From contig CP169074.1 in NCBI GenBank assembly GCA_041891055.1, positions 1,632,001 through 1,696,000 on the forward strand: 64,000 nucleotides of DNA, in the 5' to 3' direction. Made by a program: the position numbers and the translations under genes. The number at the start of each line of letters is the position of its first letter. Positions within the stretch are counted from its first letter, which is position 1. This document shows, one piece after another, positions 15,688 to 58,367 of the stretch. Source of the DNA: Halorutilales archaeon Cl-col2-1 (lineage in GTDB: Archaea; Halobacteriota; Halobacteria; Halobacteriales; Afararchaeaceae). The notes under the pieces are model-generated. The model ran no database searches. It saw only the letters and a list, made by a program, of their open reading frames with translations, and was not told where the DNA came from.

Positions 15688-15696
15688 ATAGTTAAG

Positions 15697-39529: not shown

Positions 39530-39668
39530 AAACCTATGTTTTGGAGCATTCGAGAAACGTAGTTTCTCGATACGGTCCATACGAATTCTTACGGATTCCT
39601 CGGGAACACAAAACCACCATACAGCGACGGTTTTACCCCTCGCAAATACCTTCCCGTGAAAGTGAGTC
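39517..39668 (+). repeat. Left attachment-site direct repeat (152 bp)
   Basis: Last 13 nt of tRNA-Ala plus 139 nt downstream; 147/152 identical to 57644-57795. Confidence 0.93.
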
Positions 39669-39724
39669 TGACTCGTCTCGGAACGGAGGTCTGCTCTTTC
39701 CGGCTTTTATTTTGAGGAACCGAG

Positions 39725-41710
39725 GTGGTCGGCTTGGGTGGTGAGTCTGTTGGGACTAACATAGAGGCTGACGAGAAGATATACTGTGAGGACTGTAGCC
39801 TACATATCGACGCCGAGATCTGGGAGACACACCTCAAAAACAGACATCCCAGAGAATACGATCCCGAGACGTTCGACCTCAACGACTACATAGACCGCAG
39901 TGGCGGAGACGGGGACAACGAAGAAGACGTCGACTCTGGGGCGCGCGCGACATGCCGTAGCTGCGGAGAGACCTTCGAGACCCTCCAGGAAAGAGACGAA
40001 CACGTAAGAGAAAGCCTGAGCTGTACTCTCGAAGAGGGACAGGAAGCGAGAACACCCGATTCTACAGACCTAATCGAGCCCATCACACACGGTCTCGAAG
40101 CAAAGACGGCGTTTGACCACGGAAGCTTAGACGCATACTTCGGTCTCGTCTCAGCGGTCTACGACCTCAGCGACGAGTACCCCGAGCATAAGTCAGAATC
40201 AGGGAAGAGCCAGACTATCGATGTCGACGGAGACATTAACTTCGAGGCTGTCGGTCGTGGGTTCGAGATTACGGCTATCAAGTACTGGTCGAGTCAGCTA
40301 GACCCGAGCAGTATCGGAAGGATAGACTACGACAGGGTCAACGAGTACTCGATACAGTGTACAGAGGTAGACGGACAGGCTGATATCTCTCTCGTGCTAC
40401 GACCAAGCTGGGAGAAGATGGAGTCTCTCGACGGCGAGAGTATAGTTCCCAACGCTGAGACACCTCGTGGTCTCCGTGTACAGATAAATTCGAGCTATCT
40501 CGAACCCGACGAAGTCCTCCCAGCGGCTCGGTCTGTAGCTAAAGCCGTCGACTTTAACTCCAAGTATCTCCAGAAAAAGGATATTCGAAGAGACCTCTCG
40601 ACGTGGACACAGATAGAGAGGCATGTCAGAATTAGGAGAGAGTACTCGGAGAGGATAGTCGGACACGACGGAAAGCTAACCGAGATCTCGAAGTTCTACG
40701 CGTCGAAAGACGAGAGCGTAGGAGAGTACAAATGGGACAATCAGGACGTTCTGGGGCGGATGACCCGTCTCAGTCTTGGTGAAGATGATCTCAGTGACAT
40801 GGTGGATGTCGCGTATCCCGCGAATATCAAATATTACCATCTCAAGAATCCGAGACACTCCGTCCGAGACGCTATTGACCAACCGAAGGTAGAGGTACAG
40901 ATCAAGGGCGACAGTATACCCTGGGAGAGGATCGACGAGGCTCGTGCAGACGCCGATACTATTCTCACGAATACCCTCCGTTGGTCGGGTATTCCGGTTA
41001 ATCCGACCTCTACGGTCTATGTTGACGACGACGAGTTTACCGTCTCTCGAATGGAGTCGGATGAGGTCGAGTTCTACGTCGACCCGTGTGAGGAGATCGA
41101 AGACGCTCAGGAGGAGACTGCGGTAGGAGTCGTCGGTGTTGCCGACGAGATAGAGTTGGAGGCTCTCGAAGAGATCGTAAACAGACACGGATCGGCTTCA
41201 GTCGGAGAAGTTGCGGAGGCTCTCGACAGATCCGTCAGAAGCGTGTATAGATACGTCTCAGACAGGCTTTCGGCAGTTGTCGACCTCGACCAGGGCGAGC
41301 TCTCGATAAGCTCAGACTACCTCTTCGACAGGTTAGACGACCTCTTGGAGAAGGGAGCCAGCGTCTCGTCCGACATAGCCCAGCAGCTACGCAGTGAAAG
41401 AGCCGCAGCCGCGTCTGACTCGGCGTTAGAACGTTTCGCTACTAGATGGGGTATAGAAGGCAATCTAAAGCGCGACGACGAACTCACGGTTCACCAGGAC
41501 AGGATGACGAGATCCGAGGCTAAGGAGCTTCTGCGATCCGCATACAGTGTCTTGGGAGCACGCCGCGGCTACGACGAGGTACTCAGTATTACGTTTAGAT
41601 TCGCGGACGATCCCGATGACTATCTTACATTCGGTAAGTACGGTGAGAGAACCCAGCTTGTGATTCAGAACGACGACTGCCGCATAACGTCAGAGCTGAG
41701 ACCGAGATAA
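39725..41710 (+). CDS. Putative replication protein (betapleolipovirus/haloarchaeal plasmid Rep-like) with N-terminal C2H2 fingers and C-terminal HTH
   Basis: CxxC..H...H fingers, KYYH..P....PKVEV core, SVGEVAEALDRSVRSVYRY HTH; family assignment from memory, start uncertain. Confidence 0.55.
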   Translation: MVGLGGESVGTNIEADEKIYCEDCSLHIDAEIWETHLKNRHPREYDPETFDLNDYIDRSGGDGDNEEDVDSGARATCRSCGETFETLQERDEHVRESLSCTLEEGQEARTPDSTDLIEPITHGLEAKTAFDHGSLDAYFGLVSAVYDLSDEYPEHKSESGKSQTIDVDGDINFEAVGRGFEITAIKYWSSQLDPSSIGRIDYDRVNEYSIQCTEVDGQADISLVLRPSWEKMESLDGESIVPNAETPRGLRVQINSSYLEPDEVLPAARSVAKAVDFNSKYLQKKDIRRDLSTWTQIERHVRIRREYSERIVGHDGKLTEISKFYASKDESVGEYKWDNQDVLGRMTRLSLGEDDLSDMVDVAYPANIKYYHLKNPRHSVRDAIDQPKVEVQIKGDSIPWERIDEARADADTILTNTLRWSGIPVNPTSTVYVDDDEFTVSRMESDEVEFYVDPCEEIEDAQEETAVGVVGVADEIELEALEEIVNRHGSASVGEVAEALDRSVRSVYRYVSDRLSAVVDLDQGELSISSDYLFDRLDDLLEKGASVSSDIAQQLRSERAAAASDSALERFATRWGIEGNLKRDDELTVHQDRMTRSEAKELLRSAYSVLGARRGYDEVLSITFRFADDPDDYLTFGKYGERTQLVIQNDDCRITSELRPR

Positions 41711-42364
41711 TCCGAGATCGGACAGCCTAAGCTTTACTCAGTTTATGTTTTATTTCTGATATATCCATCTAAGAAACGCCATAGGGCGGTATCTTACTGT
41801 TTTCAGCGACTATACCGCGCGACATGAGTAGCTTCTCGATCTTGTGTGTAACTACGTCTACAGAGCTATGCGACGTCTAGATGTTTCGCCAAAATCTGTC
41901 AATATCCCCTTATATGTGTGCGTAAGCGCGCAAAATCAAAACCCGCCGTAGCCTCTTTTTGTCTAAGTGATCCAGTTGATCCACGGGAAATGAGGGTAGT
42001 TAAAGTAGAGATCATACGCTATTTTAATCGGAGACTTGGGAATAACATACATAGGAACGGCTAAGGATTTATTGCTATCTATTGGAGTTCAAAGTTTGAA
42101 AATATATCGGGGGAAGTGAGAATGTATGTAGTTTAACACTCAGAAACTAGGGTATGTACAAATCCTAATCTAAGGCATTATTACTTATTAGATTTGTATT
42201 ATGCTTGTACTATCCTATTTTCAATCCCAGTTAAGCCTTATTCCCTCATTTCCATATTTCATCTTTCTGATATATATCATTTATCTTAATCAAATATATC
42301 AAATAGGATACATTTCACCTAACTTTTATTAACAAATCTTATGTACTGTCCTAAGGGGTGTTAA

Positions 42365-43099
42365 GAAATCAGACTATACATTCGATCAGATAGCGGGAAA
42401 AAACCCCGGTTCCAATTGCCCTGGAACTACCACATGTCTTTCCAGAGTTTCATATACCAAGCTCTGGACAAATACGAGCCGGAGATAGCTACCAAACTAC
42501 ATCAATACCCTCATGCACCACCATTCTCGTTCAGCGAATTCATCCAAACCGGTCCTTTTCAGGCTACAGATGATGGGCTAATGTGTGAGAGCGGATATTG
42601 GATCGTCACGTCTGACGATAAGAGAATCATAGACGCTGTGGCTAACCATGCTCAACATGATAGCAAGCTAACTCTCGGACACACAACAATCCCCGTCACT
42701 GGAGTAGATATTGAGAAGATCCAGGGTAAGGAGAAAGAGAGGTACAAGTCTACGAGTCCGATATACGTAAGTCAAAGAGGAGAAGATGGAGAAGTAGAGG
42801 ATCTTTTCCCAGAAGACGGAATGTGGTACTCTCGTCTGAAGGACAGCGTTAGAGATAGGATTCGTCATGAGAGAACTCTCCCAGATGATTTCCAGTTTAT
42901 CATCGATGAAGTCCATTGGTCGAAGAAAAAACGCCTACGTTCGGGAGATGGATGGCGATCCTGTTCTCGACTAGAGTTAACGATCAGATCCGATCTAGAG
43001 ACGAGTGAGTTCATTCAGCAACAAGGGCTCGGAGAAAAAACTGGGATGGGTTTTGGTAATCTCATGCCCACCAATGAAATCCCGGAGGAGTGGCGATGA
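42365..43099 (+). CDS. cas6: CRISPR endoribonuclease Cas6 (start codon ambiguous)
   Basis: LPWNY, FSFSE, SPIYV, C-terminal GLGEKTGMGFG loop; frame open from 42365, first canonical start TTG 42416. Confidence 0.88.
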   Translation, partial: EIRLYIRSDSGKKPRFQLPWNYHMSFQSFIYQALDKYEPEIATKLHQYPHAPPFSFSEFIQTGPFQATDDGLMCESGYWIVTSDDKRIIDAVANHAQHDSKLTLGHTTIPVTGVDIEKIQGKEKERYKSTSPIYVSQRGEDGEVEDLFPEDGMWYSRLKDSVRDRIRHERTLPDDFQFIIDEVHWSKKKRLRSGDGWRSCSRLELTIRSDLETSEFIQQQGLGEKTGMGFGNLMPTNEIPEEWR

Positions 43100-45009
43100 G
43101 TATTCAAGCAGATATTGAAAAGTTTGAGGAAGGAAAAGAGAAGAAACTTCTCTTCAAGCTCTCCCAAGATGCATTCGTAAATGAGGGGGCGGTCGAAATG
43201 GCGAGGGGTCTTGGGGACTTAGTGGAGATAGAAAGCAACAAGATACTGATTAACTCAGAGGCTTCGAAATCAGAAGTAGCAGAGCGGGTAGAAGATATAT
43301 TAAGAGAAGGATTATCTCAGACACACCGGAGAACTAACGTAGCTCACCAGATTAACGATACTGTTGATGAGAGAGACGAGTTAGATGATAGCCTGAGAGT
43401 AGGTGCACCAAACACACATTTTCCGATGGATTCTGACGAAGATGAGACGGTGTACGAAAATGATACAGTTAATATTGAAGAGCTAAGAAATGTCGGCATA
43501 GATCCATCGGAGATAGATATAGACGAAGGTGATGAAAAGAGCCTCTATACGCTTTCGCCGACATTCGTAGGAAGACCACAGCCGGGAAGATACGGTTTCC
43601 AAGCCTCCCTCGATAACACTGAGGATTACTTTGATATATTTACGAAATACATAGAAGGCGAATATGAAGGATCAGAGGATGACTACTGTACCAACTGTGG
43701 TTCCAGTGGAATACCAAGCTGGCAGGTGGAGGACGAAGAAGGAAATAAAATTAAACTAGAGCACAGCCAAGCATCCTCAATACTGTTAACTAAGTCGAGT
43801 AATCCGTCTCCTCTTGGTCAGGGGTCACCCAAAAGCAGTTATCAAGGTAGATGTGTTTCGTGTCTTATAGCAGGATTCTATTACACGCTGATCGAGAAAG
43901 CAGTTCGTCTCGTAAGTTTCGATGATGGGGGAGAATACCGTATTTTTACTCCAGTAGGTGACTTTGAGGAGTTACGTAATATACGCGGAGATCTGACTAA
44001 CATCTGGGAAAGCGGAGGTGAAGGAGGAAGAACTATTAATGAACCTACATCGAACAGCAAAGCTCGGCAGCAGAATATAGGATCTACAAGAAGTAGATCC
44101 AAGGGGATACAGATACTCGACTTCTTCAGCGAGGTTCTCAGACAGGGTAATATAGATATTGTAGGAGGAGAATACTCTAAAGAGACGATTCACAGACCCA
44201 CTTCTCTAATAACTTATATTACCTCTCCAATGAAGAGTGGCAACTATGTTAGAGAGATAAAGTCGTTTGAAAGTGTGGATTCGGACAGTTGGATATACGA
44301 AGTTGTCCGTGAGAGAGAGTTAGAACCAGAAGGTCAAGAAGATGAAGATTGGGATGAGAGTTACTGGGCTGTACCCGACGTTTTGTCTTGGTTTGCAAAT
44401 ATATCCCAGAATAGCGAGGAAGTTGGAATAGACGAGAAGGATATGATTGGCTACGGGATAATAGAGAAGGATCTAAAACAGATAGAGAGAGGTCTATTCG
44501 AGCTTCTGAAGAAAGTCGAGAAAGAGAAGGGGGAAATAACTCCCTATATGTTACCCATCGCAAAAACAAGAAACTATTTCGGAGATATCATGAGACAATC
44601 AGCAAGCACTGAGAGTATAGACAGTGAACAGATCGAGAGCATCACGAATGTAGCCTCCAACCTTGGGGGGATGTTCTATGACAGGGATAATATAAGCGTG
44701 CTAATATCCCTCCAGAGCTCGAACACTCCCTCCGAGTTTTTACAAGCATTCGAGAAGGCGTCTATGCAGGCTCAAAAGATGATAACTGACGAAGGTGAAG
44801 GAGGAGAGGATGAGGAGTTCCGAAGAAAGGCAATAAACCGCTGGTCGGGAAAAGAAGACATCGAGACTGTTCTTGAATTAATAACAGATCCAGACAAGTT
44901 TGAGGACGCAAAAAGAATGTTCGTTATACAAGCATCGCTGTCGGCACATTACCAGAATAGTGTAAAGAACTACCAAGAGAGCCAGTCAGATACTGGAGGT
45001 GATCAGTAA
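43096..45009 (+). CDS. cas8: Type I large subunit Cas8 (Cas8b/Cst1-like, CxxC...CxxC) with Cas11-like C-terminal domain
   Basis: Between cas6 and cas7; CTNC and CVSC pairs; helical C-terminal about 140 aa; ATG 43096 overlaps the cas6 stop. Confidence 0.75.
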   Translation: MSIQADIEKFEEGKEKKLLFKLSQDAFVNEGAVEMARGLGDLVEIESNKILINSEASKSEVAERVEDILREGLSQTHRRTNVAHQINDTVDERDELDDSLRVGAPNTHFPMDSDEDETVYENDTVNIEELRNVGIDPSEIDIDEGDEKSLYTLSPTFVGRPQPGRYGFQASLDNTEDYFDIFTKYIEGEYEGSEDDYCTNCGSSGIPSWQVEDEEGNKIKLEHSQASSILLTKSSNPSPLGQGSPKSSYQGRCVSCLIAGFYYTLIEKAVRLVSFDDGGEYRIFTPVGDFEELRNIRGDLTNIWESGGEGGRTINEPTSNSKARQQNIGSTRSRSKGIQILDFFSEVLRQGNIDIVGGEYSKETIHRPTSLITYITSPMKSGNYVREIKSFESVDSDSWIYEVVRERELEPEGQEDEDWDESYWAVPDVLSWFANISQNSEEVGIDEKDMIGYGIIEKDLKQIERGLFELLKKVEKEKGEITPYMLPIAKTRNYFGDIMRQSASTESIDSEQIESITNVASNLGGMFYDRDNISVLISLQSSNTPSEFLQAFEKASMQAQKMITDEGEGGEDEEFRRKAINRWSGKEDIETVLELITDPDKFEDAKRMFVIQASLSAHYQNSVKNYQESQSDTGGDQ

Positions 45010-45947
45010 TGAAAGCAATAGGTATGAACTACCTGACCTATGTAGACCTCGGGAATCATAACGCAGGAGAAGGAGGAAGTCAATTATCCGACCTCAAAAA
45101 GTACGGAAACAAGCCCTACATCAGTGGACAGGCATACCGACACTCAATCAAAGACGCTCTGAAAGCAATAGTCGATGACTTGAGTACTGTAGACTGCACT
45201 CCGAGGAACGCATGTGGGGACATAGAGAACTGCAAGCTGTGTGACCTATTCGGTTACATGAATACTGATCTAGAACCCGATGACGGAGAACCCAATCCAA
45301 ATAGAGTTTCACCGCTTAGGGTTAGTCCTCTAGTTGGGCAGTATGACATGCCGATAACGACAGATCTCGTCGTCCAATACGATGTAGAAGGCGATAATCG
45401 TATGGCACGCCGGGAAATAGAGGAGAACGTATTCAAGGGAGGGATTGCGCTGGATCTAGATTCTATAGGAAGACGAGAGAATGAGGAAGTCAATACAGAC
45501 AGGGACTACGACGAGCAGTATCATCGTGAGCTTGAAAACGAGATAGACGAAGACGAGAGGAAAGAAAGAGCGAAGGAACTCATAGATGCTGTTCAAAACA
45601 GCACACAGCTAGCAGGTCAGGCTCGCCACATGGCAGATTTCATGCCGGATCTTCTGGTAGTCTCAAGCCAAGACCAGTACAACCAGAGAGTAAGCAATGC
45701 ATTACATGTTGACCCCGAATCCGGCGAACTCAACACAAAATCCTTCGAGAGCGTACTCCAAGACCTCACTAATATGGAGTCTGACGGTGAGGGGAAGGTG
45801 TGGGTCGCTGGAACGTATAACCCCGAAGTAATCTCAAACTGGGATGAAGTGATGGAAACCGCCGAAGAAATTGAGGGAGTGACTATTGTTGATACCGTAA
45901 GTGGATGTTATGAGGCGGTAAAAGAAGAAATCGACTCGGAACTATAG
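45009..45947 (+). CDS. cas7: Cas7, DevR/Cst2-type
   Basis: PYISGQAYRHSIK, CDLFGYM, RVSPLRVSP, LDLDSIG. Confidence 0.92.
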   Translation: MKAIGMNYLTYVDLGNHNAGEGGSQLSDLKKYGNKPYISGQAYRHSIKDALKAIVDDLSTVDCTPRNACGDIENCKLCDLFGYMNTDLEPDDGEPNPNRVSPLRVSPLVGQYDMPITTDLVVQYDVEGDNRMARREIEENVFKGGIALDLDSIGRRENEEVNTDRDYDEQYHRELENEIDEDERKERAKELIDAVQNSTQLAGQARHMADFMPDLLVVSSQDQYNQRVSNALHVDPESGELNTKSFESVLQDLTNMESDGEGKVWVAGTYNPEVISNWDEVMETAEEIEGVTIVDTVSGCYEAVKEEIDSEL

Positions 45948-45951
45948 TATA

Positions 45952-46677
45952 ATGACCCAACAGATCCTCCGAGCTACGCTTGACGTACCTTTCGAGTGTG
46001 CATTTAGAGACCCAGACTCGATGAACGCCTTACCTACATACAGTGTTCCACCAGTTACTACACTCCAAGGAATGCTATATGCTGCACTTGCACGTCCTTC
46101 CCTACTTTTCCAGTCAGGTAGAAGCCGGTATATTCCAAAAGACCTGAGAGATGATGAGGAAGAGTTTCGTAGGGAGGTTCAAGACAAGTGTCAGTTTGGC
46201 ATAAGAGTCATAGAACAAGGGAAAGAGTACAACGGTCTGAAGACTCGTCAGAAGATGGAGGATAAAAGAGGGCAAAATGACGCGAGGTATAAAAGCTATG
46301 TGACAAATGAGGAAACTTTGATCGAGCCCACATTTCGGATTTATATAACTGAAAATGGAGGGGAGGAATACCTAGATATATTCAAGCAAGCTCTTGAAGA
46401 TCCTTCTCGAATGCTGTATTTAGGACGCTCAGATGATATAGTAGATGTATGTGATGTTCATCTCATTGAAGCCGAGAAGGTAAACAAAACCAAGAGTCTG
46501 GACTGTGTCGTCCCAAGTGCTGAAGGAGAGCATCTAGAGATGTTGCCCGTGGAGCCAGATCACAGATCCGGTCGTTCTACAAAGCCTCCAAGAGTCAAGG
46601 CAGTTTCAATAGATGGTGCCGAGGTGGGTAGTTATTATCGTACTTCAGATGGGGAAGAGTTTGTATTTATAACTTGA
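45952..46677 (+). CDS. cas5: Cas5
   Basis: AFRDP...TY.VPP.TTL.GML.AA, LYLGRSDD. Confidence 0.92.
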   Translation: MTQQILRATLDVPFECAFRDPDSMNALPTYSVPPVTTLQGMLYAALARPSLLFQSGRSRYIPKDLRDDEEEFRREVQDKCQFGIRVIEQGKEYNGLKTRQKMEDKRGQNDARYKSYVTNEETLIEPTFRIYITENGGEEYLDIFKQALEDPSRMLYLGRSDDIVDVCDVHLIEAEKVNKTKSLDCVVPSAEGEHLEMLPVEPDHRSGRSTKPPRVKAVSIDGAEVGSYYRTSDGEEFVFIT

Positions 46678-46721
46678 TTCTTTTTTAAGTTTTTCTCAGC
46701 TTCCGTCGAAGAGTTGAACTA

Positions 46722-49238
46722 ATTTCAATCCCACTTAGGCACTATTACGACTCCGAGACGCTCAGAACCTTGACCGAGAACATGAGACAATTTCAATCCC
46801 ACTTAGGCACTATTACGACGAACGAGTCTCTTCGTATCCTCCTATCGATACCATCATTTCAATCCCACTTAGGCACTATTACGACTCCGAGACGCTCAGA
46901 ACCTTGACCGAGAACATGAGACAATTTCAATCCCACTTAGGCACTATTACGACGAACGAGTCTCTTCGTATCCTCCTATCGATACCATCATTTCAATCCC
47001 ACTTAGGCACTATTACGACAGTTCCTCCATGCGTTCGCTCCAAGCCGACTTAGTCGAATTTCAATCCCACTTAGGCACTATTACGACAGTTCCTCCATGC
47101 GTTCGCTCCAAGCCGACTTAGTCGAATTTCAATCCCACTTAGGCACTATTACGACAGTTCCTCCATGCGTTCGCTCCAAGCCGACTTAGTCGAATTTCAA
47201 TCCCACTTAGGCACTATTACGACAGTTCCTCCATGCGTTCGCTCCAAGCCGACTTAGTCGAATTTCAATCCCACTTAGGCACTATTACGACAGTTCCTCC
47301 ATGCGTTCGCTCCAAGCCGACTTAGTCGAATTTCAATCCCACTTAGGCACTATTACGACACGTCTTCGTCAACGAAACTTATTCCGCTGTCGATCAATTT
47401 CAATCCCACTTAGGCACTATTACGACATCATCCACGCGAACCACCAGTGCTTCAGAGGCGTCATTTCAATCCCACTTAGGCACTATTACGACCGTATCTG
47501 ACCTGCCGGACAGGGGCTTTCGAGCACCGAAATTTCAATCCCACTTAGGCACTATTACGACCCGGGCGATGCGCGCGGATATGCGGAGCAGTTAATCCAT
47601 TTCAATCCCACTTAGGCACTATTACGACCAACTGGAACGGACTAATGAGGACTCTTGGAGGACTATTTCAATCCCACTTAGGCACTATTACGACAACTTC
47701 GTAGTCTACATCAAAGTCTTCGTTGTCATCATTTCAATCCCACTTAGGCACTATTACGACAACTTCGTAGTCTACATCAAAGTCTTCGTTGTCATCATTT
47801 CAATCCCACTTAGGCACTATTACGACAACTTCGTAGTCTACATCAAAGTCTTCGTTGTCATCATTTCAATCCCACTTAGGCACTATTACGACTTTGAGAT
47901 TGATCCAGACGATTCTTCTCCCTGGCGTTATTTCAATCCCACTTAGGCACTATTACGACCGTAGCCGCGCCGCTAAACGCTCCCTCGAGGAGACTCGCAT
48001 TTCAATCCCACTTAGGCACTATTACGACGAGAACGAGGTCGCGCGCGAAACGAGAGAGTATCTTGAATTTCAATCCCACTTAGGCACTATTACGACGGCA
48101 AAAAACGGAGTCGCTGAATCGAGCGGTCGAGGATATTTCAATCCCACTTAGGCACTATTACGACACGACTGCGAAACCAGCCCTCGACTGAGGATAGATG
48201 GGATTTCAATCCCACTTAGGCACTATTACGACTATGCCGGCGAGCCAGCTATATTGAGGAGCCGAGTCATTTCAATCCCACTTAGGCACTATTACGACTC
48301 GGAGAAAGCCAACTCTGATGACATGGTGCTCGAAGAATTTCAATCCCACTTAGGCACTATTACGACAATATCTCGAAGAGAAGTCGGGAGTCGATGAATC
48401 ATATTTCAATCCCACTTAGGCACTATTACGACAATACGGCGAGAGACAATCATAGTTCGTTCTTTGACATTTCAATCCCACTTAGGCACTATTACGACCA
48501 GCGACTCCTATATTTCAGGACCGGCACATGGAGAAATTTCAATCCCACTTAGGCACTATTACGACTCAGGACCCGCACATGGAGAAGGGGATAACGCGTT
48601 CATTTCAATCCCACTTAGGCACTATTACGACGGAAGGTAACTGGACAAACATCGATGAGTCTAAATTCCCATTTCAATCCCACTTAGGCACTATTACGAC
48701 TATGAGATCGGATCCTCTGAGATCGGCATCTTCGAGATATTTCAATCCCACTTAGGCACTATTACGACACGATCCCGCCGCGGAGTATGAGGACAGTCTA
48801 TGGCATTTCAATCCCACTTAGGCACTATTACGACTCTCCATCTCGGAATCGGATGTCACCGTCTCTCGCCAATTTCAATCCCACTTAGGCACTATTACGA
48901 CAAGTTCGAGAGCTACACGTTCGACCTCGCAGTCGGTCATTTCAATCCCACTTAGGCACTATTACGACAGAGACTTAATCAAGATCCAGAAACGCGACCG
49001 GCAATATTTCAATCCCACTTAGGCACTATTACGACCCGTTATACTGAACGGTCGTCGAGTCGGTAATCAGTTCATTTCAATCCCACTTAGGCACTATTAC
49101 GACCGCCGGCAGAACTCCCAGTTTCTCGACTATGACTTCATTTCAATCCCACTTAGGCACTATTACGACTGCATATCTTCTTGATCGGCATCTTCGACAC
49201 ACTCTCGCATTTCAATCCCACTTAGGCACTATTACGAC
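46722..49238 (-). CRISPR. CRISPR array: 38 identical 30-bp repeats, 37 spacers (29 unique, about 36-39 bp)
   Basis: Plus-strand repeat ATTTCAATCCCACTTAGGCACTATTACGAC; reverse complement ends ATTGAAAT (type I 5' handle), leader on the cas2 side. Confidence 0.98.
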
Positions 49239-49354
49239 CTAGAGTAAGAAATTTATACTAGATAAGTGTTCTTGAAGTATTAGCCTTCAAAGATAGGCTT
49301 TTCTTCGCTAGCCCATGTGGTAATGTAATCTGGTATAAAGGGGCTAGAATCGAA
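49239..49354 (-). promoter_or_regulatory. CRISPR leader
   Basis: AT-rich non-coding segment between the cas2 stop and the first repeat. Confidence 0.75.
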
Positions 49355-49618
49355 TCATAAGAATCGATTATCTTCTAAAGACTCACCAATTGTCTCTGTC
49401 TCGACCCAATCCGGATTAGAAACCTTATACACAATAACTTGATCATCCCCTTGGACAAGCCCATCCAGACCAGACTTTATTTCCTTATACTCGCTCTGAG
49501 TTAATTCCCCATCAAAAACACTATTTTGCCTCCAAGTTAGCCATTTTCGTAAGTAGTCACATAGCTTTTGAGTTCTACTTGCTTTAACATCGTATACTAT
49601 TATAACGTTCATTTTCAT
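49355..49618 (-). CDS. cas2: Cas2
   Basis: IIVYDV, QNSVFDGELT. Confidence 0.95.
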   Translation of the reverse strand: MKMNVIIVYDVKASRTQKLCDYLRKWLTWRQNSVFDGELTQSEYKEIKSGLDGLVQGDDQVIVYKVSNPDWVETETIGESLEDNRFL

Positions 49619-50595
49619 CTAGCAGTTGTTGGTTGATACTCTTCTATCTCCAGAATATGCTTAGTTATGCGATGGCATTCCTGACGTATCCATCGTCTCC
49701 AAGACATATTACGTCTGATTTGAGGATGTTTCCTAGTTTGCAGTAGACGTTCATCGAAAGCATCAACAAAAGTCGATTTAGCAGATTCATTCATACTACA
49801 GAAGTCCCCTTCCTTCTCGAAATCGTCAGGGGTTATTTTTCCTTGGTTAGCTAGACCTATAATCAGCCTGTCAACTATCAGAGGCTTGAAAATTTCAGCG
49901 ATATCCAGACTTAGACTATACCGTCTCTCGTGTGGCTCGTGGAGAAAACTCACTGTCTGGTCAAGACGTGTATGATATATTTCTGTTACTATAGAACCAT
50001 ATAACATTGAATTACCATAACTCATTAAACTATTAGAAGGATCTTCGGGAGGATTCTTAGAACGACCGTTCAATTCCATTCCATCAGCGATTACGTGGTC
50101 AAAACCATCGTAGTATATCTTACGTGCCTCACCTTCGATTTCCATTAATTCAGGTATAGACTCTGCATTCTCGAGAAGCTGTTTTCTAAGTTCAAGTTCT
50201 TCATCAGCTATACAGCAATTGTTTTCCCCATATCTAAGTAGGGTTAGCCTAAGGTTTTCTATACTACCTTTGACGAATTTTCGAGCTAACTTCAGACGCT
50301 TTTCTTCGTCTAAATAATATTCAGACTGTTTTGTCACACACATCCCACTCAGAATAGGCTTAGGTGGCTGAAAACAGCCTAAATACTTGCCGCCATAACT
50401 AAAGACATGTAATGTTGTGTTGGTTTCTTCAAGTAGATCATGGACTCCAGGGGTTATGGTAATCCCCTCAGTAGCGAATATATCATAGACTTTCTCAATA
50501 GGAATTGGTGTCTTGTCGTTCTCAGTTTCGAAATAAAGAGTGTTCCGTTCCCGAGTTAAGGTTCCCCTTGAATTTATGTAATATCTATCTTTCAT
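49615..50595 (-). CDS. cas1: Cas1 (I-B type)
   Basis: G.L.R..NTL.F, IEGE....YY, N.LMSYGN..LY, SFLHEP, LDIAEIFKP. Confidence 0.96.
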   Translation of the reverse strand: MKDRYYINSRGTLTRERNTLYFETENDKTPIPIEKVYDIFATEGITITPGVHDLLEETNTTLHVFSYGGKYLGCFQPPKPILSGMCVTKQSEYYLDEEKRLKLARKFVKGSIENLRLTLLRYGENNCCIADEELELRKQLLENAESIPELMEIEGEARKIYYDGFDHVIADGMELNGRSKNPPEDPSNSLMSYGNSMLYGSIVTEIYHTRLDQTVSFLHEPHERRYSLSLDIAEIFKPLIVDRLIIGLANQGKITPDDFEKEGDFCSMNESAKSTFVDAFDERLLQTRKHPQIRRNMSWRRWIRQECHRITKHILEIEEYQPTTAR

Positions 50596-51089
50596 GCAAA
50601 ACAGAACTCCCTCATACTACATTTTTTACAGGCAGTTTTCCACTCCGGATCTGGACAATCCCCCTCGATAATCTCTCGTATGTTTTTAGTCACCTCATCA
50701 TGTCTTTTCTGGATGTCTTCAGACCAATCCATCTCTTTTTTTGTGCTTTCTTCAGGGTATCTTAGAATACCCACAACTTCAGTTTCTTTTTCCGAGTGGA
50801 GTAAATGCATATAATGAATCAGTTGTATTTCATCAGCATCTTGATACGTAGAGGAGCGTTTGACCTCGTTTATCTCTATTTTGTCCCCCTTGCGTATGAA
50901 ATCTATCTGATTATTTCCGATATTTTTTGTATCTTCTCTCTTGAAGCTATCTGAGTCAAGTAATTCCCCAAGCTTCACGTATTCGTTCTCATCTGCATAA
51001 AGAATCCTATAATGGTGGTACCAGAGCTTAGTTTTACATATTGTATAGTAGTGATAGTGCTGTCCAGTAAGCTCTCTTTCAGATATCAT
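50592..51089 (-). CDS. cas4: Cas4
   Basis: ICKTKLW, ID..., EVKRS, QL..Y, CKKCSMREFC Fe-S ligands. Confidence 0.95.
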   Translation of the reverse strand: MISERELTGQHYHYYTICKTKLWYHHYRILYADENEYVKLGELLDSDSFKREDTKNIGNNQIDFIRKGDKIEINEVKRSSTYQDADEIQLIHYMHLLHSEKETEVVGILRYPEESTKKEMDWSEDIQKRHDEVTKNIREIIEGDCPDPEWKTACKKCSMREFCFA

Positions 51090-53570
51090 CTATAGTTGTG
51101 TACTAGATCGAATGTCATCTGGTATTCTTCTTACCTCAGTGTCTGGGGGTATTACCCCATACTCATAACTATACTCTATGTTGATCACCTGAGTTCCTTC
51201 AATTTCACCGTATTCATCCTTAAATCTATGGGGAGGATCGAGAGTTATATCATCACTAACTAACCACCACTTGGGTATAGGGACAGTATATTCTCTGAGA
51301 AAAACGCTCAAGTCCTCTTTACACTCATTGTAATAGTCTTCATGTACTCCACATCTACCATTCCTATCGCAATCATGGAATTCTTTCCATAGGTCACTAG
51401 GTAATGGAGACTCCGAATTGTGATGATATTTGGAAGGCAACATAGAGATACGTCGACTGCTATCCTCACGGATATTCAGATCTTCCGATCCTTCTGTCTC
51501 GTCCTCACCCAACCTTCGTAGCTTTCCATAGAGTAGGTCATTCGAAATAGCATTTCCGAACTGAGTTGTGTTCATATTCATCTTACTTAGATCCACTCCT
51601 GTGTACGATTCTTCTACCCACTTCAGGCTGTCTTTAAAGCTATACATGCCAGCATTCTCGAAGACCTTCTCAGTCTGTTCTAAGATCTTCCACTTCTCTT
51701 TTTCCTCAGGACTTTGATCTTTGTAGCCTGCGTAGGGGTACCACGTATCTGTATCTTCATCCGAAATCGGAGAAAAGACTACACAACGATACTTGTGATT
51801 TTGATCATCCTGTTTGAAGCTTGCACACTGATCACAGTTACAGTCCTCCGAGCTGGGTCTATATCCTTCTCTGTGGAGTCTGCCTGCCCTCTGTATTACT
51901 GCGTCGGCAGGTGCTATATCAGTCAGAAGCAAATCCGCTGAGAGATCGAGACTGATCTCACACACCTGTGTGGATACGAGAAACTGTCTTTCATCCGGAT
52001 TCGAATCTATTCCGAATATATCGCGTATCTCCTCTTCCTTATCTTGCCTATGGTCTTGAGTAAATTCGCTACTATAGTAGGTAACATTCTCACCGTCTTC
52101 CTTTAGATCCCAAGCGAGATCTCTAGCCCCAGATACAGTATTTTTGACTATCATCACCTTCTTCGCGTCACTTTCTTCTAGGTACTCTTGAACTTCGGAG
52201 GTGGTGAGTTCAGAGTTTTCTGTAATAACTTCAAATGCTTCTCTCACTCCCTGATCTTCTTCGAGTATCCCTTCACTCCGGACTTTCTCTGAGCCATCGA
52301 AAGCTCGGTCATTCTGTAGTTGTTGAGGCATGGTGGCGGTCATAACATACCAAGGCACACCAAGATCATCGAGTCTTCTTATCGTCGAAAGTATATGACC
52401 CGTGGTATATGCATCGTAGGCATGTATCTCATCAAATATAACTGCACTTCGTAACACGTTGCCCTTTGCTATGCTTGCCGTTTTGTATCCATTCACAAGA
52501 GAAGAGAGTAGATGGTCAACAGTACAGACTGTCACAGGCTTCTGGAACCATTTTCTTGCTTCTTCACCAAGGTTCTCTGATTTCCAGACCTGTTCTCCGG
52601 TACTTTCGAGGAAACTCTTATCCGCACCGTGGTATAGTGCTGCTTTGCTAGCTTCAATTTCCTCGTCTCCCTTGGTCATTGAAAGCAGAAGATTATTCGT
52701 AGTCACCTGGGTTGGCATCGCAAATATCATTCTGTCTGCTTTCTCTTCTTCTATCATCTTCTGCCCCCACTGGAACGCTGTGTGGGTTTTTCCTTCACCA
52801 CATCCGGCAAGCCCCAAGAGATGATCTGTATCAGTCTCTTCTATTTCTTTTTGGAAAGGTCGGAGTGATGAGAATAGATCTATATCGTCGGAATAGAGAG
52901 TCTCAAACTGGGTTTTTGGGTCTCCGGATTCCTTCGAGCTAACATAATGGTCAGCTTGGACTAAAGCGGAGTGTAAAAGAGTGGAGAGAATACCCACTTC
53001 CAGATAATCAGACTCTGATAGCTCCTTCTTTCGGTACTCACGTAACTGGGATTTAAGGCTTTTTTTCAGGTTAGTATCTATTTCAGTTTCCGGAAGACCG
53101 ATACTCCCGACGTTATCCACCATTTTTTGAGTCCCAGATATAGAATAGAGTCTACTGTTTTCTGGTCTCATTTTGCCCATCGTGAATGGGGTATGGTGAT
53201 GAAGAATAGCAAGAGTTAGAGAAACCCCTTGGTTTATAGGAAGACCTTCATCTCTAGCTTTTGCGAATGCGTAAATCCCACTTCTATCGCTATGAGTGGG
53301 TAAATTTGGTTTCTTGTCTTGTCTTACTGCATTTTTAGCTTCAGACTGCCATTCTTCATGAGCTTTCCCGACATCGTGGTAGAGTCCAGCTAACTCCCCG
53401 CAGTCTAGGATGTCACCGAAATCGGTTTCAAGTTCCCTCGCTATTCTTTTAACAGCATGTGAGTTGAGTATAGATCTCGTTTCCTTCGATACTTCTTCTA
53501 AATGAGTTTTAAGAGTTACTTGGTCGGAGATGGACTTCGAACGATCTAGTTTAGCTATGAGAGGCTGCAT
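51090..53570 (-). CDS. cas3: Cas3 (N-terminal HD nuclease fused to SF2 helicase)
   Basis: TH, YHDVGKA, HH, QADH; GEGKT, DEIH, TAT, QRAGRLHR; start placed at MQPLIAK (TTG 53579 alternative). Confidence 0.96.
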   Translation of the reverse strand: MQPLIAKLDRSKSISDQVTLKTHLEEVSKETRSILNSHAVKRIARELETDFGDILDCGELAGLYHDVGKAHEEWQSEAKNAVRQDKKPNLPTHSDRSGIYAFAKARDEGLPINQGVSLTLAILHHHTPFTMGKMRPENSRLYSISGTQKMVDNVGSIGLPETEIDTNLKKSLKSQLREYRKKELSESDYLEVGILSTLLHSALVQADHYVSSKESGDPKTQFETLYSDDIDLFSSLRPFQKEIEETDTDHLLGLAGCGEGKTHTAFQWGQKMIEEEKADRMIFAMPTQVTTNNLLLSMTKGDEEIEASKAALYHGADKSFLESTGEQVWKSENLGEEARKWFQKPVTVCTVDHLLSSLVNGYKTASIAKGNVLRSAVIFDEIHAYDAYTTGHILSTIRRLDDLGVPWYVMTATMPQQLQNDRAFDGSEKVRSEGILEEDQGVREAFEVITENSELTTSEVQEYLEESDAKKVMIVKNTVSGARDLAWDLKEDGENVTYYSSEFTQDHRQDKEEEIRDIFGIDSNPDERQFLVSTQVCEISLDLSADLLLTDIAPADAVIQRAGRLHREGYRPSSEDCNCDQCASFKQDDQNHKYRCVVFSPISDEDTDTWYPYAGYKDQSPEEKEKWKILEQTEKVFENAGMYSFKDSLKWVEESYTGVDLSKMNMNTTQFGNAISNDLLYGKLRRLGEDETEGSEDLNIREDSSRRISMLPSKYHHNSESPLPSDLWKEFHDCDRNGRCGVHEDYYNECKEDLSVFLREYTVPIPKWWLVSDDITLDPPHRFKDEYGEIEGTQVINIEYSYEYGVIPPDTEVRRIPDDIRSSTQL

Positions 53571-53649
53571 CCTCTTCAAATATATTAACTATCTGTCTTT
53601 AAATATTCATCTCCGAAAAGGATTATATGGATCAAAGATTGGTTCTATT

Positions 53650-53728
53650 AGTATAATAGTGCCTAGGTTGGATTGAAATACGAGATGCCCGTGCAGATAG
53701 CTCGACAGAAGGTATTGGCTTCTTTTTC
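53650..53728 (+). ncRNA. Solitary degenerate CRISPR repeat plus spacer-like guide (crRNA-like RNA)
   Basis: TAATAGTGCCTAGGTTGGATTGAAAT matches 24/26 of the repeat 3' part with an intact handle; BRE/TATA GAAAAGGATTATAT at 53615-53628; T-tract after about 36 nt. Confidence 0.75.
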
Positions 53729-53952
53729 CTGACTTCTTCTTCAAGCTCGATTAACCCAACCTTTTCTAACTCAGTACATCGTGATAGGTCGTAACAACAA
53801 TTTCTCTGGCTCTATTAGTGATTCTTAACTAGCCGATTTTCCTGTAAATTCGGGTAGAAGACCTTGAATATACTCCATATAGACATTAATTCACACTCTC
53901 AATCCATGGTACTATCCGGAAGTTCAAAGTAAAAACGGGTATAACGATAACT

Positions 53953-54567
53953 ATGGCTGAAGTCTGGATGACAGAGGATGAGATACAGGATCTCGAACTC
54001 CAAGCCGATAAGCTCAGAGATAGACTCATAATACAGCTTGGTGCTTACAGCGGTATGAGAATTGGCGAGATTGTAAACCTCCAAGTATCCGACCTAAACC
54101 AGGACACTGTTGATGGAGAACTGAGATACTTCGCGAAGGTTGAGGGGAAGAAGACCGATCAAGAAGCCGAAGGTAAGACAGAGACGAAGACCCGTGACGC
54201 TTGGATAACCCAGGATACCTGGAAAGACCTACAGACCCACATAAACCAGGAGAATCTCACTAATGACGACTATATCATGAACTCCAGATACGGAGGGAAG
54301 ATACACAAAGACAGCGCGAGGAAAATAGTAAAAAGAATTGCTGAGAAAGCCTACGAGCAGACTGAAAAAGAGAAATTCCTTGATGTGAGTAGCCATGACC
54401 TACGACGCTTTTTTGCCCATCATCTGGCTGAAGAAAAGGGTGTTAATATACGTGTAGTTATGGATCTTGGTGGCTGGGAAGATCTACAGACATTTGTGAG
54501 GCACTACTTGGATAAACCAAGTAAGATGACTAAAGCCCAAGAGCTCGATAATGCAGGCTGGAGTTAA
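53953..54567 (+). CDS. Small tyrosine recombinase (catalytic domain only)
   Basis: GMRIGE, GK, HDLRR, GGW, HY catalytic residues in 204 aa. Confidence 0.9.
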   Translation: MAEVWMTEDEIQDLELQADKLRDRLIIQLGAYSGMRIGEIVNLQVSDLNQDTVDGELRYFAKVEGKKTDQEAEGKTETKTRDAWITQDTWKDLQTHINQENLTNDDYIMNSRYGGKIHKDSARKIVKRIAEKAYEQTEKEKFLDVSSHDLRRFFAHHLAEEKGVNIRVVMDLGGWEDLQTFVRHYLDKPSKMTKAQELDNAGWS

Positions 54568-54880
54568 GACCCGACAATAGCACGCTCATACTTTCTACTA
54601 CCACCAATATAACTAATTAGCCATTCACGTCTCCTAATTTTGAAAGTACCGAGATCCTTAATTCGTTAATTCCGGACAGCTCAGGGGAATTAGTATTACG
54701 CGATACGAGCGAGGATGTATCCATATGAAGACGTAGATGGATTACTATTAGACAACCTACTTCTGTCGAATAGGAAATATCCCATTTACCCGCCGCTTGA
54801 TGGCATATTTCTAAAACCGCTGTAAGGCGTTGGGTTAATGGACAAGTTAAGTATCTTGAGTACGTGTATAGATTTGTAAA

Positions 54881-55216
54881 ATGACCGTACTGAACTGTAA
54901 TAGCTGTGGTCACGGCTGGAACTACTCCGGAGGTCTTACTGACTACACGACATGTCCTAATTGTGGACATTCAGTAAAGATTCCTTCGGCAGATAGTTCC
55001 AATTTTAAAGCAGAAGACGTCGAAGAGGAAATGGGATCGTTCGAAGAACGTCTCGACCGGTTAGAAGAGACGTTAACGAAGGTACAAGATGACCTCATTA
55101 CTATCGAGGAGAAGATATCAGATAGAGACAAAGCCTCTTCTAAAACCGAGACTGACGAGAAGAGCAACGAGGGAGGTCTATCTCCCTATGACCCTACGAT
55201 GGAATTTGAATTTTAA
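54881..55216 (+). CDS. Zinc-ribbon (CxxC/CPxCG) plus coiled-coil protein
   Basis: CNSCGHGW...CPNCG then heptad repeats. Confidence 0.75.
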   Translation: MTVLNCNSCGHGWNYSGGLTDYTTCPNCGHSVKIPSADSSNFKAEDVEEEMGSFEERLDRLEETLTKVQDDLITIEEKISDRDKASSKTETDEKSNEGGLSPYDPTMEFEF

Positions 55217-55239
55217 AACGACGGGAAGAACTCCTCCTA

Positions 55240-56154
55240 TCACTTCTCGACGTTCTCGACTTCCTCTTGAGTCAAAAGATCCTCGATGTCCATCTTTTCC
55301 TCTATGTCCTCTGTGTCCGGGATCTCGGAAATTCTCTCTTCTTCGTCTTCTGAGTCGTCAGATAGATCCATATCTATCACTTCTACGTTCTTTAGGAAAA
55401 CAGCATCCTCCCACGGTCGAAGTAGGTACGCTCCGGTACCTGCTACAGTGAGATAGGCTATACCGTCTAAGTCGCCTTCTTTCTTTTCGAATTTCCACTC
55501 TGTATTCTCCGGTAAATCTGGAAGACGTGTACTGAACCTACCAAGCTCTTTTTCGACCAAAGGTACGGCGAATTTACTATTTAACTCCGCGGTTAGAAGT
55601 GCGTAAGAAGAGTTCTCGAATATTCCCATGTCGAACTCCACAGTGGCTAAATGTCCATGTGCCTCGTTCTTTTTCTCTACCTTATCCGAAAATCTCTCTT
55701 CAGGAGGCAGTTCATCGAGGTCTTCCTCTTCGTATGATATGACGTTTATCAGCCTCGTCATTTTAAAATCGTCACCAACAACTACGAAATATGCCTTATC
55801 GCCCGAGGTCAGTTTCTCTCCGTCGTGGGTATAGACACACGACATGTCTTTTACTCCTCCGACCAGACGCCCTTCCCAGTATTCCTTGACTAATCTACGT
55901 GCTCTTTCTTCATCTGATAACTCTTGGTTGGGCTCTGTCTCTATGCCTACAACATAGTATGCTGTGGCATTACTGACCTTTACCGAGTCTATCTTCTCCC
56001 CCTTAGACAACTCTTTAAGACGGTTCTTTGCCGTAGTCTTGCTAACACCTGTATGCTCCGCTATCTGGGACGCCGTCCATACCGGACGGCTTCCGCTTTT
56101 CATGAGGGTCAAGACCTCCTCTTTCGTCAACTCCCTGTCTCTTCCGCGTGACAC
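55240..56154 (-). CDS. phiH1-repressor-like wHTH protein with long uncharacterised C-terminal domain
   Basis: PVWTASQIAEHTGVSKTTAKNRLKEL HTH; divergent from the integrase as in SNJ2-like modules. Confidence 0.7.
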   Translation of the reverse strand: MSRGRDRELTKEEVLTLMKSGSRPVWTASQIAEHTGVSKTTAKNRLKELSKGEKIDSVKVSNATAYYVVGIETEPNQELSDEERARRLVKEYWEGRLVGGVKDMSCVYTHDGEKLTSGDKAYFVVVGDDFKMTRLINVISYEEEDLDELPPEERFSDKVEKKNEAHGHLATVEFDMGIFENSSYALLTAELNSKFAVPLVEKELGRFSTRLPDLPENTEWKFEKKEGDLDGIAYLTVAGTGAYLLRPWEDAVFLKNVEVIDMDLSDDSEDEEERISEIPDTEDIEEKMDIEDLLTQEEVENVEK

Positions 56155-56462
56155 TATTGGCTATTCAATGCCTGTTAACTTAGCTTTTCTGTTCGAACTG
56201 AAACCCCGTTTCAGACATAAAGTTTAAGTCAAGGGATCTCATTAGTAACACTCAGGATGACATAACAAACACAGTGGTAATATCGCGGGAAAAGCTACCT
56301 GACCCCCAGATGCCCACGCCCTACCAAAGCACGGCATCTTTCGAGGGTCGGTGAAATACCCCATCAGAAGGGGTTGTATAGATACACCCATATTTAGAAC
56401 CTCGACCAATTAATGGTTTGGGTTACTCTACTCCTTCTGATGGGTCGTCTAAGACGACCACA

Positions 56463-56594
56463 ATGAAAAACGAAATACGAAACCAGAAACCGACAGAAGG
56501 CGAAAAGAGAACTAACAGAAACGGACGACGGGTACGAATACCTCTCACCTCAGAGATAGCCGGGACAGTGGAAGGGGTGGTTCCGGATGAGTGA
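56463..56594 (+). CDS. 43-aa ORF translationally coupled to the integrase (possible accessory factor)
   Basis: MKNEIRNQKPTEGEKRTNRNGRRVRIPLTSEIAGTVEGVVPDE; ATGAGTGA overlap with the integrase start. Confidence 0.45.
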   Translation: MKNEIRNQKPTEGEKRTNRNGRRVRIPLTSEIAGTVEGVVPDE

Positions 56595-57603
56595 ACTACA
56601 GCCTCTCGAACCTGAGGAAGGGGTTGAGATGTATCTTGATACCCGAGAGGACGAGCTCAGTAGGGAGACGTTACGGAAACAGAAGACGCGTCTCGATGCT
56701 TTTCTGAGCTGGTGTGAGGACAGAGGTATAGAGAACCTCAACGAACTGACCGGCAGAGATCTCCAGCGGTACCGACAGTGGCGCAAGAAGGGCAAGGGGG
56801 ACGGATACGGTAAGGTCAAAAACGTCACACTAAGGTCTAATCTCACTACACTCCGAGTTTTCCTCGAACACTGTGCGAATATCGATGGTGTCGAGAAGGG
56901 GATGCGAGAACGTGTTATGCTTCCTGAGGTGGAGGATGGAACGAAGGACAGTAAGATAGCCGAAGAACGTGTTAGGGATATACTCGATAAACTCGAAACC
57001 TACGAGTACGCGTCTCGTAGGCACGTGATGATATCCCTGATGTGGCACGGTGCTCTACGTATCGGGACTATACGTGCTCTCGACGTCGGTGACTTCGATC
57101 CCGATGAGCCCTGTCTGAAGATACGCCACCGTCCAAGCACAGACACACCCCTCAAGAACCGTGAAAGTGCAGAACGAGATCTTGCTCTCGGTGACTTCTA
57201 CGCTCAGGTTATAGAGGACTACATCGAGGAGAACCGCCATGATGTCCAGGATGACTACGGAAGGCATCCTCTCATAACAAGTACAGAAGGAAGGCTGACA
57301 AAGACTCCATACAGAACTGCGGCGTATAGGGTCTCACTTCCGTGTTGGACAGATGACTGTCCACATGGCAAGCAGCGAAAGACGTGTGAATGGACGAGCC
57401 GCGATAAGCTTAGTCACTGTCCTAGTTCGAAGTCTCCTCACGACTTCCGACGCTCGTCTATCACATACCATCTCAAAGAGAACGTTCCTCCGGAGATAGT
57501 CTCAGACCGTGTCGACGCTACTCCTGACGTAATTGAGAAGCACTACGACAAGAGGAACGAACGCGAGAAGATGCGGACGAGGAAGGAGCTCCTAAACTTA
57601 TGA
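56587..57603 (+). CDS. SNJ2-family tyrosine integrase
   Basis: LQPLEPEE.V..YL, LTGRDL, RIGT, HRP..TPLKN, CPHG...CPSSKSPHDFRR, KHYD; 40 bp from the right repeat. Confidence 0.92.
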   Translation: MSELQPLEPEEGVEMYLDTREDELSRETLRKQKTRLDAFLSWCEDRGIENLNELTGRDLQRYRQWRKKGKGDGYGKVKNVTLRSNLTTLRVFLEHCANIDGVEKGMRERVMLPEVEDGTKDSKIAEERVRDILDKLETYEYASRRHVMISLMWHGALRIGTIRALDVGDFDPDEPCLKIRHRPSTDTPLKNRESAERDLALGDFYAQVIEDYIEENRHDVQDDYGRHPLITSTEGRLTKTPYRTAAYRVSLPCWTDDCPHGKQRKTCEWTSRDKLSHCPSSKSPHDFRRSSITYHLKENVPPEIVSDRVDATPDVIEKHYDKRNEREKMRTRKELLNL

Positions 57604-57869: not shown

Positions 57870-58367
57870 CTACTCCTCCACTTCTATAACATAGACGTTC
57901 TCCTCGTACGGTTCGCCTTCTATCTCGGTTTCGTTGGTGTCGTCTTTCTCGAAGCCGAGACTCTGGTAGAACGAGTTCCCCACCTGGTTGTCGGCGAGGA
58001 CGAAGACCTTGAGACGTTCGACTCCGAGATCCGAGAGCCTCTCCCGTATCTCGTGTAGGAGACGCGTTCCTATCCCCTTTCTCCTGTGGTCGGGGTCGAC
58101 GTAGAGACGTAGGAGATCGGCTTCGTCTCCGTTAACGACAGCGTGTGAGAAGCCGCCTATCTCGCTGTCTTCTTCGTAGACGAGGAAAGACGAGTCGGGC
58201 ATACGTATCGCGTCCTCGAGTGTCTCAGTCGAGTACCAGTCCTCGACAGTCTCGTCTATCTCTTCCTTGCCGAGTATGTCGGCGTAGGTGTCTTCCCACG
58301 ACCTGTGGGCGACCTCCTGTACCTCGTCTATGTCATCCCTCTCGGCTTCACGTATAGCGTTTCCCAT
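57870..58367 (-). CDS. GNAT family acetyltransferase
   Basis: LYVDPDHRRKGIG..LL, N....FY...GF. Confidence 0.92.
   Translation of the reverse strand: MGNAIREAERDDIDEVQEVAHRSWEDTYADILGKEEIDETVEDWYSTETLEDAIRMPDSSFLVYEEDSEIGGFSHAVVNGDEADLLRLYVDPDHRRKGIGTRLLHEIRERLSDLGVERLKVFVLADNQVGNSFYQSLGFEKDDTNETEIEGEPYEENVYVIEVEE

Follow-up and report, generated by a model that had tools for sequence, protein, structure and literature searches.

A standalone repeat unit beside cas3 in a haloarchaeal type I-B island, best read as the remnant of a second CRISPR array

Ectopic repeats now serve as markers of CRISPR-guided gene regulation and of addiction modules. The CreA and CreR elements are presented, in the parts of the reports that deal with their architecture, as degenerate mini-CRISPRs of the form psiR1-psiS-psiR2, in which the guide has a seed match to a cas or toxin promoter beside a PAM (10.1101/2023.03.10.532045; 10.1101/2023.03.03.530964). 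The second psi-repeat is usual and not obligatory, and elements with one or with two repeats are described (PMC9458426). Standalone repeat elements have also been described in type I-B loci, and the origin proposed for them is the truncation of an array or the duplication of its terminal unit.

Here, we examine an ectopic repeat found beside cas3 in the genome of Halorutilales archaeon Cl-col2-1, in a window of 64,000 nucleotides (the whole stretch of DNA that was analysed, contig CP169074.1). The finding is real but ordinary, i.e., a standalone repeat unit that is best read as an array remnant, and its value lies in the contrast with a neighbouring CreR-like mini-array upstream of cas6.

The island and its main array

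The host genome measures 2.06 Mb and has a GC content of 0.55. The relatives sampled for this host all fall within one order, and the named homologues belong to the Halobacteria. The window holds a low-GC island, at 0.41-0.46 GC over 42-56 kb vs about 0.55-0.60 around it, which begins after a tRNA-Ala (39458-39529). Its right end is marked by a gene for a tyrosine-recombinase catalytic domain (53953-54567), followed by a full integrase gene (56587-57603); no remnant of the recombinase N-terminus could be found upstream of 53953. The CRISPR-Cas region as a whole (39458-57603) looks like an island integrated beside the tRNA-Ala. This putative tRNA-Ala island also carries a DUF7845 gene (39725-41710) and a gene for an HTH protein (55240-56154), and an ORF for a GNAT acetyltransferase is found at 57870-58367.

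The type I-B effector genes form a cas6-cas8b-cas7-cas5 operon on the + strand (42416-46677), of which cas6 occupies 42416-43099. On the - strand, cas3, which encodes the HD and helicase domains (51090-53570), heads a cas3-cas4-cas1-cas2 operon (49355-53570). For a type I-B system, this order is unusual: the two operons converge, with the array between them. In four related loci (L032, L112, L118 and L121), cas3 directly follows cas5 on the same strand, and in L119 it is co-oriented with cas5, with an array in between. The convergent order seen in the window would be consistent with an inversion of the segment running from cas3 to the array.

The main array (46722-49238, crRNA sense on the - strand) is made of 38 identical 30-nt repeats, which read GTCGTAATAGTGCCTAAGTGGGATTGAAAT in the crRNA sense, and of 37 spacers, 29 of them unique; its leader lies beside cas2. 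The spacers measure 36-39 nt and have a mean GC content of 0.526. Tandem duplications are found among them: one spacer is present five times (46990-47367), another three times (47665-47892), and a block of two spacers twice (46722-46989). The terminal repeat is perfect, the same as all 38. Given these duplications and this perfect terminal repeat, the main array is recombinationally active. We also note that the neighbouring spacers 10 and 11 (48499-48601) overlap over 21 nt with one mismatch, and they thus derive from variants of one target.

From this overlap, a 5' flank of CCC can be deduced for spacer 11, which is the only PAM clue that the system itself provides. In a Halorussus lipolyticus relative, the Cas8 of which is 36% identical to that of the island, one spacer matches the virus HHIV-2 (32/36) beside CCG and another one matches HSTV-1 (33/36) beside CTT. 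A CCN-type PAM for the island system is thus weakly supported, by CCC, by CCG and by the CCT found upstream of cas6 (see below), with CTT as a misfit. The Halorussus lipolyticus plasmid NZ_CP119807.1 (L112) carries a related type I-B system at 14528-15909, and its repeat, which is related to that of the island, likewise begins with GTCGTAAT and ends with GGATTGAAAG.

The main array found no match in the phage collection, and the 400 genomes of the class gave weak partial matches only; the best of these, at 30/36, falls in a conserved gene. Among the viral contigs, the cores of spacers 1 and 2 had 0 matches. Within its own genome, no array spacer matched at 7 mismatches or fewer, and the search at up to 8 mismatches returned a single match, that of spacer 8 on contig C2, with 8 mismatches. 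The repeat itself was found in none of the 400 other genomes of the class (at most 3 mismatches in 26 nt), and its pattern had 0 matches in the viral contigs.

Anatomy of the unit beside cas3

The cas3-side unit and cas3 are divergent, the unit being located 71-80 bp upstream of the gene. It contains a psi-repeat, psiR1 (53650-53679, + strand; AGTATAATAGTGCCTAGGTTGGATTGAAAT), that is identical to the array repeat at 24 of 30 positions. The mismatches fall at repeat positions 1-4, 17 and 20, so that the 3' part matches at 24/26, the last 10 nt are identical and the 8-nt 5' handle ATTGAAAT is intact at 53672-53679. The orientation is opposite to that of the array (+ vs - strand), the nearest repeat of which is 4412 bp away. 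Downstream comes a spacer-like sequence, psiS1 (53680-53716, + strand), of 37 nt and 0.51 GC, and then a T-tract, TTCTTTTTCC (53720-53729, + strand), a possible archaeal terminator that stands where a second repeat would begin. The scan of the unit for bacterial-type terminators returned none. The first-pass annotation had noticed this degenerate repeat copy, its intact handle, its distance from the array (given as 4.4 kb) and its orientation, as well as the spacer-sized sequence, of which it quoted the part at 53680-53712, and the T-tract, of which TTCTTTTT at 53720-53727 is a part; all of this is borne out.

The BRE and TATA boxes that it had placed upstream are also present, in the form of a BRE-like CGAAAA (53615-53620, + strand) and a TATA-like TTATAT (53623-53628, + strand), which together lie 22-35 nt upstream of psiR1. 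From the haloarchaeal consensus, we take them as a putative promoter for the unit. A TTTAAA box on the - strand (53598-53603), 28-33 nt upstream of the cas3 ATG (53570), is placed back to back with it. An A/T box is found 14-30 nt upstream of all three repeat starts of the island, i.e., that of the main array (49252-57), that of psiR1 (53623-28) and that of psiRa, the first repeat of the cas6-side element (42270-77). The promoter-like box is thus what the leader-proximal end of an array would carry.

The resemblance of psiR1 to the array repeat is more than chance. Indeed, the 2.06-Mb genome holds only two non-array matches at 10 mismatches or fewer, namely psiR1 (6 mismatches) and the site upstream of cas6 (8 mismatches), vs a mean number of sites, for 40 shuffled repeats, of 0.0 at up to 6 mismatches, 0.1 at up to 8 and 4.8 at up to 10. 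The predicted fold of psiR1 retains the consensus hairpin (U8-G26, A9-U25, G10-U24, U11-A23 and two C-G pairs), at -1.4 kcal/mol vs -3.9 for the array repeat, a value that does not distinguish psiR1 from shuffles. Five of the six substitutions fall outside the hairpin and handle positions, with a probability by chance of about 0.06 according to our own hypergeometric estimate, for which the set of positions was defined post hoc. The structure of the whole unit is not unusual (z = +1.15), and neither this unit nor the cas6-side one belongs to an Rfam family.

There is only one repeat copy at this place, fewer than the two at least that make a CRISPR array. Downstream of psiS1, no second psi-repeat could be found, the best local alignment scoring 18.0, at 99 nt, vs 16.7 +/- 2.4 for shuffles (maximum 24.5), and the 100 bp flanking psiR1 hold no partial repeat. 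The flanks of the unit have no homology to the present leader or trailer, with alignment scores within the shuffle ranges, and the unit has no match in the plasmid collection. The interval 53580-53960 contains only unremarkable ORFs of 22-61 aa, none of them a small toxin-like ORF adjoining the unit, which is a weak test, and it contains no target of psiS1 either. RNA toxins are not recognisable by sequence alone.

The search for a target and the mini-CRISPR upstream of cas6

Ranked against the 29 unique array spacers, psiS1 has the median GC content, with 14 spacers equal or lower, and it is the GC peak of its intergenic region, the flanks of which are at 0.26-0.38. By its GC content, psiS1 thus looks like a normally acquired spacer. 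Its potential targets were sought with a seed scored out of 10 (nt 1-5 and 7-11). The four intergenic regions of the island hold no seed match of at least 8/10, and the island intergenic DNA holds no exact match of at least 9 nt. Over 39-58 kb, the sole 9/10 match (57971, AGA flank) is inside the GNAT acetyltransferase ORF, and the 13 matches at 8/10 are all inside ORFs; three of these have a CC-containing flank (CCG at 55862, ACC at 56305 and 40468). This agrees with the first-pass annotation, which had found by eye no convincing PAM-adjacent seed match in the window.

That annotation also proposed a guide for gene repression, addiction or anti-competitor use, and pointed to seed matches beside a CCN PAM elsewhere in the genome, especially in promoters. 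This proposal was not supported. Elsewhere in the genome, the seven perfect-seed sites are all in coding DNA, with none in promoter-like DNA. When one seed mismatch is allowed, 190 sites are found genome-wide, of which 17 are CCN-flanked. Long ORFs contain all 17, and a CCN flank is absent from the 18 non-coding matches (the unit itself excluded); this filter rests on the inferred PAM. Outside of the genome, the psiS1 protospacer (28 specified bases) had 0 matches in the viral contigs, and psiS1 was found in none of five genomes at 3 mismatches or fewer.

Several individual sites were considered and set aside. Over the first 18 nt of psiS1, the one at C1:980968 agrees at 17 positions, but its flank is TGA and it falls within the ORF of a 1009-aa surface protein (G000, C1:980466-983495), the C-terminal end of which is presumably PGF-CTERM-like; we judge this match to result from chance and codon bias. 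Codon bias is also what the recurrence of the prefix ACGAGATGCCCG, with 6 further occurrences in the genome, reflects. At C1:1447824, there is a CCG flank and a TTTTATA just past the seed, but the site is inside the ORF of a membrane protein on the opposite strand. At C1:1543392, a perfect 12-nt seed lies beside a CCG flank, but inside the SRP54 gene. By our own estimate, about 0.5 CCN-flanked perfect matches are expected by chance among the seven, so the SRP54 match carries no weight. Finally, an 18-base pattern made of the handle and the seed had 14 matches in the genome contigs, and the identity upstream of them was random (2-10 of 22 bases), which marks them as chance matches.

The second non-array repeat site of the genome gives a different picture. 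Upstream of cas6 and divergent from it, we find a mini-CRISPR, psiRa-psiS2-psiRb (42156-42247, - strand). Its first repeat, psiRa (42218-42247, - strand), matches the array repeat at 22/30 and has the handle ATTGAAAA. The guide psiS2 (42188-42217, - strand) measures 30 nt, and its GC content of 0.27 is below that of all 29 spacers and like that of promoter DNA. The second repeat, psiRb (about 42156-42187, - strand), matches at about 20/30 with a 2-nt insertion, its 5' part being the best conserved; its alignment score of 27.5 is above the shuffle maximum of 24.5, which comes from shuffles of a different segment.

The predicted target of psiS2 lies in the cas6 upstream region (42321-42356, - strand). 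The seed, at 42342-42353, reads TAGGACAGTACA vs TAGGATAGTACA, i.e., 11/12 with a mismatch at position 6 only, and the 5' flank is CCT (42354-42356). According to the relevant part of one report, position 6 is not read by type I guides, and a I-B mini-array located upstream of cas6, with its target between the array and cas6, has already been described there (10.1101/2023.03.03.530964). A TTTTATTA box (42324-42331), 60-110 bp ahead of the cas6 start, would be covered by the 33-nt footprint of psiS2. As estimated by shuffling, the probability of such a seed match in the cas6 upstream region is 0.001-0.002, and this match is one of the 7 non-self perfect-seed sites of psiS2 in the genome. The cas6-side mini-CRISPR would thus be a candidate for CreR-like autorepression of the cas genes, an element of a known kind. 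It appears to be the better CreR-like candidate of the island, and it was absent from the first-pass annotation.

Could the cas3-side unit also be a regulatory guide of the CreR or CreA type? Its single-repeat RNA would then lead Cascade, through a seed-only match, to a gene outside of the window, the repressed gene being a host gene, a toxin or another defence system. The handle and the hairpin are intact, the unit has a promoter-like box of its own and a T-tract, and, given the cas6-side mini-array and its target in the cas6 promoter region, the island Cascade is probably already used for regulation. A CreA made from one ectopic repeat is among the cases described (PMC9458426), and targets in trans are said, where that report turns to them, to be hard to find computationally (10.1101/2023.03.03.530964). 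We nevertheless consider such a role unlikely. The seed matches run against it, with none of at least 8/10 in the island intergenic DNA, all seven perfect ones in coding DNA and all 17 CCN-flanked ones inside long ORFs, and the SRP54 site, a CCG-flanked perfect 12-nt seed that could be counted in its favour, is of the number expected by chance. The GC content of psiS1, moreover, is that of an immune spacer and not that of AT-rich promoter DNA, and no small toxin-like ORF was seen next to the unit, by a weak test.

Related loci and origin of the unit

The Cas3 of the island is without a close relative. Its best database homologues are 51-53% identical (P0002-P0004), and matches were found in 4 of 400 other genomes of the class, at 40-46% identity, and in none of 400 genomes of the phylum at E<=1e-100. 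Among 60 relatives of the host, the best match has an E value of 6e-6, and the protein query returned nothing from the metagenome contigs or from the viral contigs. An alignment query led to 80 loci, the only near ones being L032 (45%) and L033 (35%).

Two arrays per cas cassette are found in four of the five loci of this Cas3 lineage that are long enough to judge (L118, L119, L121 and L033, the exception being L112). L119 (G235:C6) carries an array at 3570-4304 (minus sense), right before cas3 (4439, + strand). Made of 9 near-perfect and 2 degenerate repeats, it is divergent from cas3 and has its leader end toward that gene. The place and orientation of psiR1 relative to cas3 are those of this array. 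In L118 (G185:C74), it is cas6 that has a full array upstream, in divergent orientation, and the position of this array matches that of the cas6-side psi-unit. The repeats of these flanking arrays share their 3' end, GGATTGAAA, with those of the island. They are, however, full arrays of 8-11 repeats, whereas the cas3-side unit has one repeat and one spacer.

With moderate confidence, we read the cas3-side unit as what is left of the leader-proximal end of a second array, a vestige that would probably still yield one orphan, otherwise ordinary crRNA. This reading follows from the ordinary-spacer GC of psiS1 and from the full array found at the same place in G235:C6; the failure to find a regulatory target and the recombinational activity of the main array lend it further support. 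A second array would once have stood upstream of cas3, divergent from it. What remains would be the array promoter, a first repeat that has become slightly degenerate, and a single spacer acquired in the ordinary way, while the rest would have been lost, with unrelated DNA and its T-tract now found downstream. Against this reading, no direct trace of the lost part was seen, as no further repeat is found anywhere in the genome at 10 mismatches or fewer and the flanks of the unit do not resemble the present leader or trailer; the searches for a psiS1 protospacer were negative too.

With its promoter-like box, its Cas6 hairpin and its 8-nt handle all intact, the unit is expected to be still transcribed and processed. 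Transcription would start at about 53650, Cas6 would cut before 53672, and the 3' end of the RNA would be at the T-tract or trimmed back from it. The orphan crRNA would then load into the type I-B Cascade and act as an ordinary interference guide against an invader rather than as a gene regulator, being also a minor competitor for the Cas proteins.

The same evidence of origin, i.e., the arrays of the related loci and the GC of psiS1, could also be read as that of an inert relic, a decaying recombination scar that would be neither usefully transcribed nor processed. The hairpin of psiR1, which is weaker than that of the array repeat and like that of shuffles, would fit such a relic, as would the unremarkable structure of the whole unit, the lack of an Rfam family, and the fact that neither a target nor a protospacer of psiS1 was found. 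Such a relic is unlikely, however, in view of the perfect 3' 10 nt of psiR1, of the five changes out of six that spare the stem and the handle, and of the BRE/TATA-like box that lies at the right distance.

This sparing of the hairpin and handle, together with a T-tract that falls precisely where the spacer should end, hints that a functional gene for a single guide has been under selection, and this would be compatible with a regulatory guide too. It is nonetheless quite improbable that psiR1-psiS1, instead of being a relic, has been selected as a single-repeat guide gene with a terminator as its boundary, which would provide the horizontally acquired type I-B island with a second, trans-acting guide besides the cas6-side mini-array. 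The target of such a guide would lie on the host chromosome, where one candidate is the SRP54 site at C1:1543392, or in an unsampled competing element.

Very improbable, finally, is a Racr-like decoy, in which a solitary repeat coming from the integrase-bearing right-hand DNA would soak up Cas6 and Cas7 and dampen the host type I-B system: the repeat does stand directly behind a promoter-like box, as in the SRUs presented in part of PMC10651486, and the tyrosine-recombinase gene starts 274 bp downstream of the unit, with the full integrase beyond it, but the unit adjoins cas3 when that part of the account has SRUs as not associated with cas genes, the repeat, the array and the unit have no match in the viral contigs, the phage collection and the plasmid collection, respectively, and the far side of the unit has no att-like repeats or array remains.

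Taken as an array remnant, the cas3-side unit shows its interest next to its neighbour, as one island would present both outcomes. At one former array position, there is a mini-CRISPR with a spacer that fits the cas6 promoter; at the other one, an ordinary spacer has been kept, for which no target was found. This contrast provides criteria to tell a regulator from a scar, namely the GC content of the spacer, a seed-only match with a mismatch at position 6, and the presence of a second psi-repeat. If it is expressed, the cas3-side unit would be a natural one-repeat guide with a 3' end set by a terminator, and it would then be of some interest for the design of minimal guides in haloarchaeal type I-B systems.

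Among the described systems, Racr and the viral SRUs resemble the cas3-side unit, in the features covered by the relevant part of Camara-Wilpert et al. (PMC10651486), by a single repeat mimic placed just downstream of a promoter-like sequence, with no other repeat in the surrounding 100 bp. They differ from it in that the unit is located in the cas island of its host and not in a recognisable virus or plasmid, and has a spacer-like tail. With the standalone repeat-like sequences of type I-B loci, it has in common its location in a long intergenic region; the regulatory class of these elements, in contrast, combines two repeats with a target in the promoter of cas6 or cas8, when the unit has one repeat and no target that could be found.

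With CreR and CreA, as portrayed in the pertinent part of Liu et al. (10.1101/2023.03.10.532045), the unit shares an intergenic, degenerate ectopic repeat that keeps its 8-nt 5' handle, as well as a location beside a cas operon, divergent from a cas promoter. It differs from what is described of them by having no psiR2 and no seed match to a cas or toxin promoter, and by the ordinary-spacer composition of its guide. Of the CreA, CreR or Racr architecture that the first-pass annotation had proposed, the single-repeat anatomy beside cas3 stands, but neither a psiR2, nor a promoter target, nor a mobile-element home could be shown for it. Compared with the CreR/CreA family as far as the above part defines it, the cas3-side unit falls outside, whereas the cas6-side element (42156-42247) fits by its sequence.
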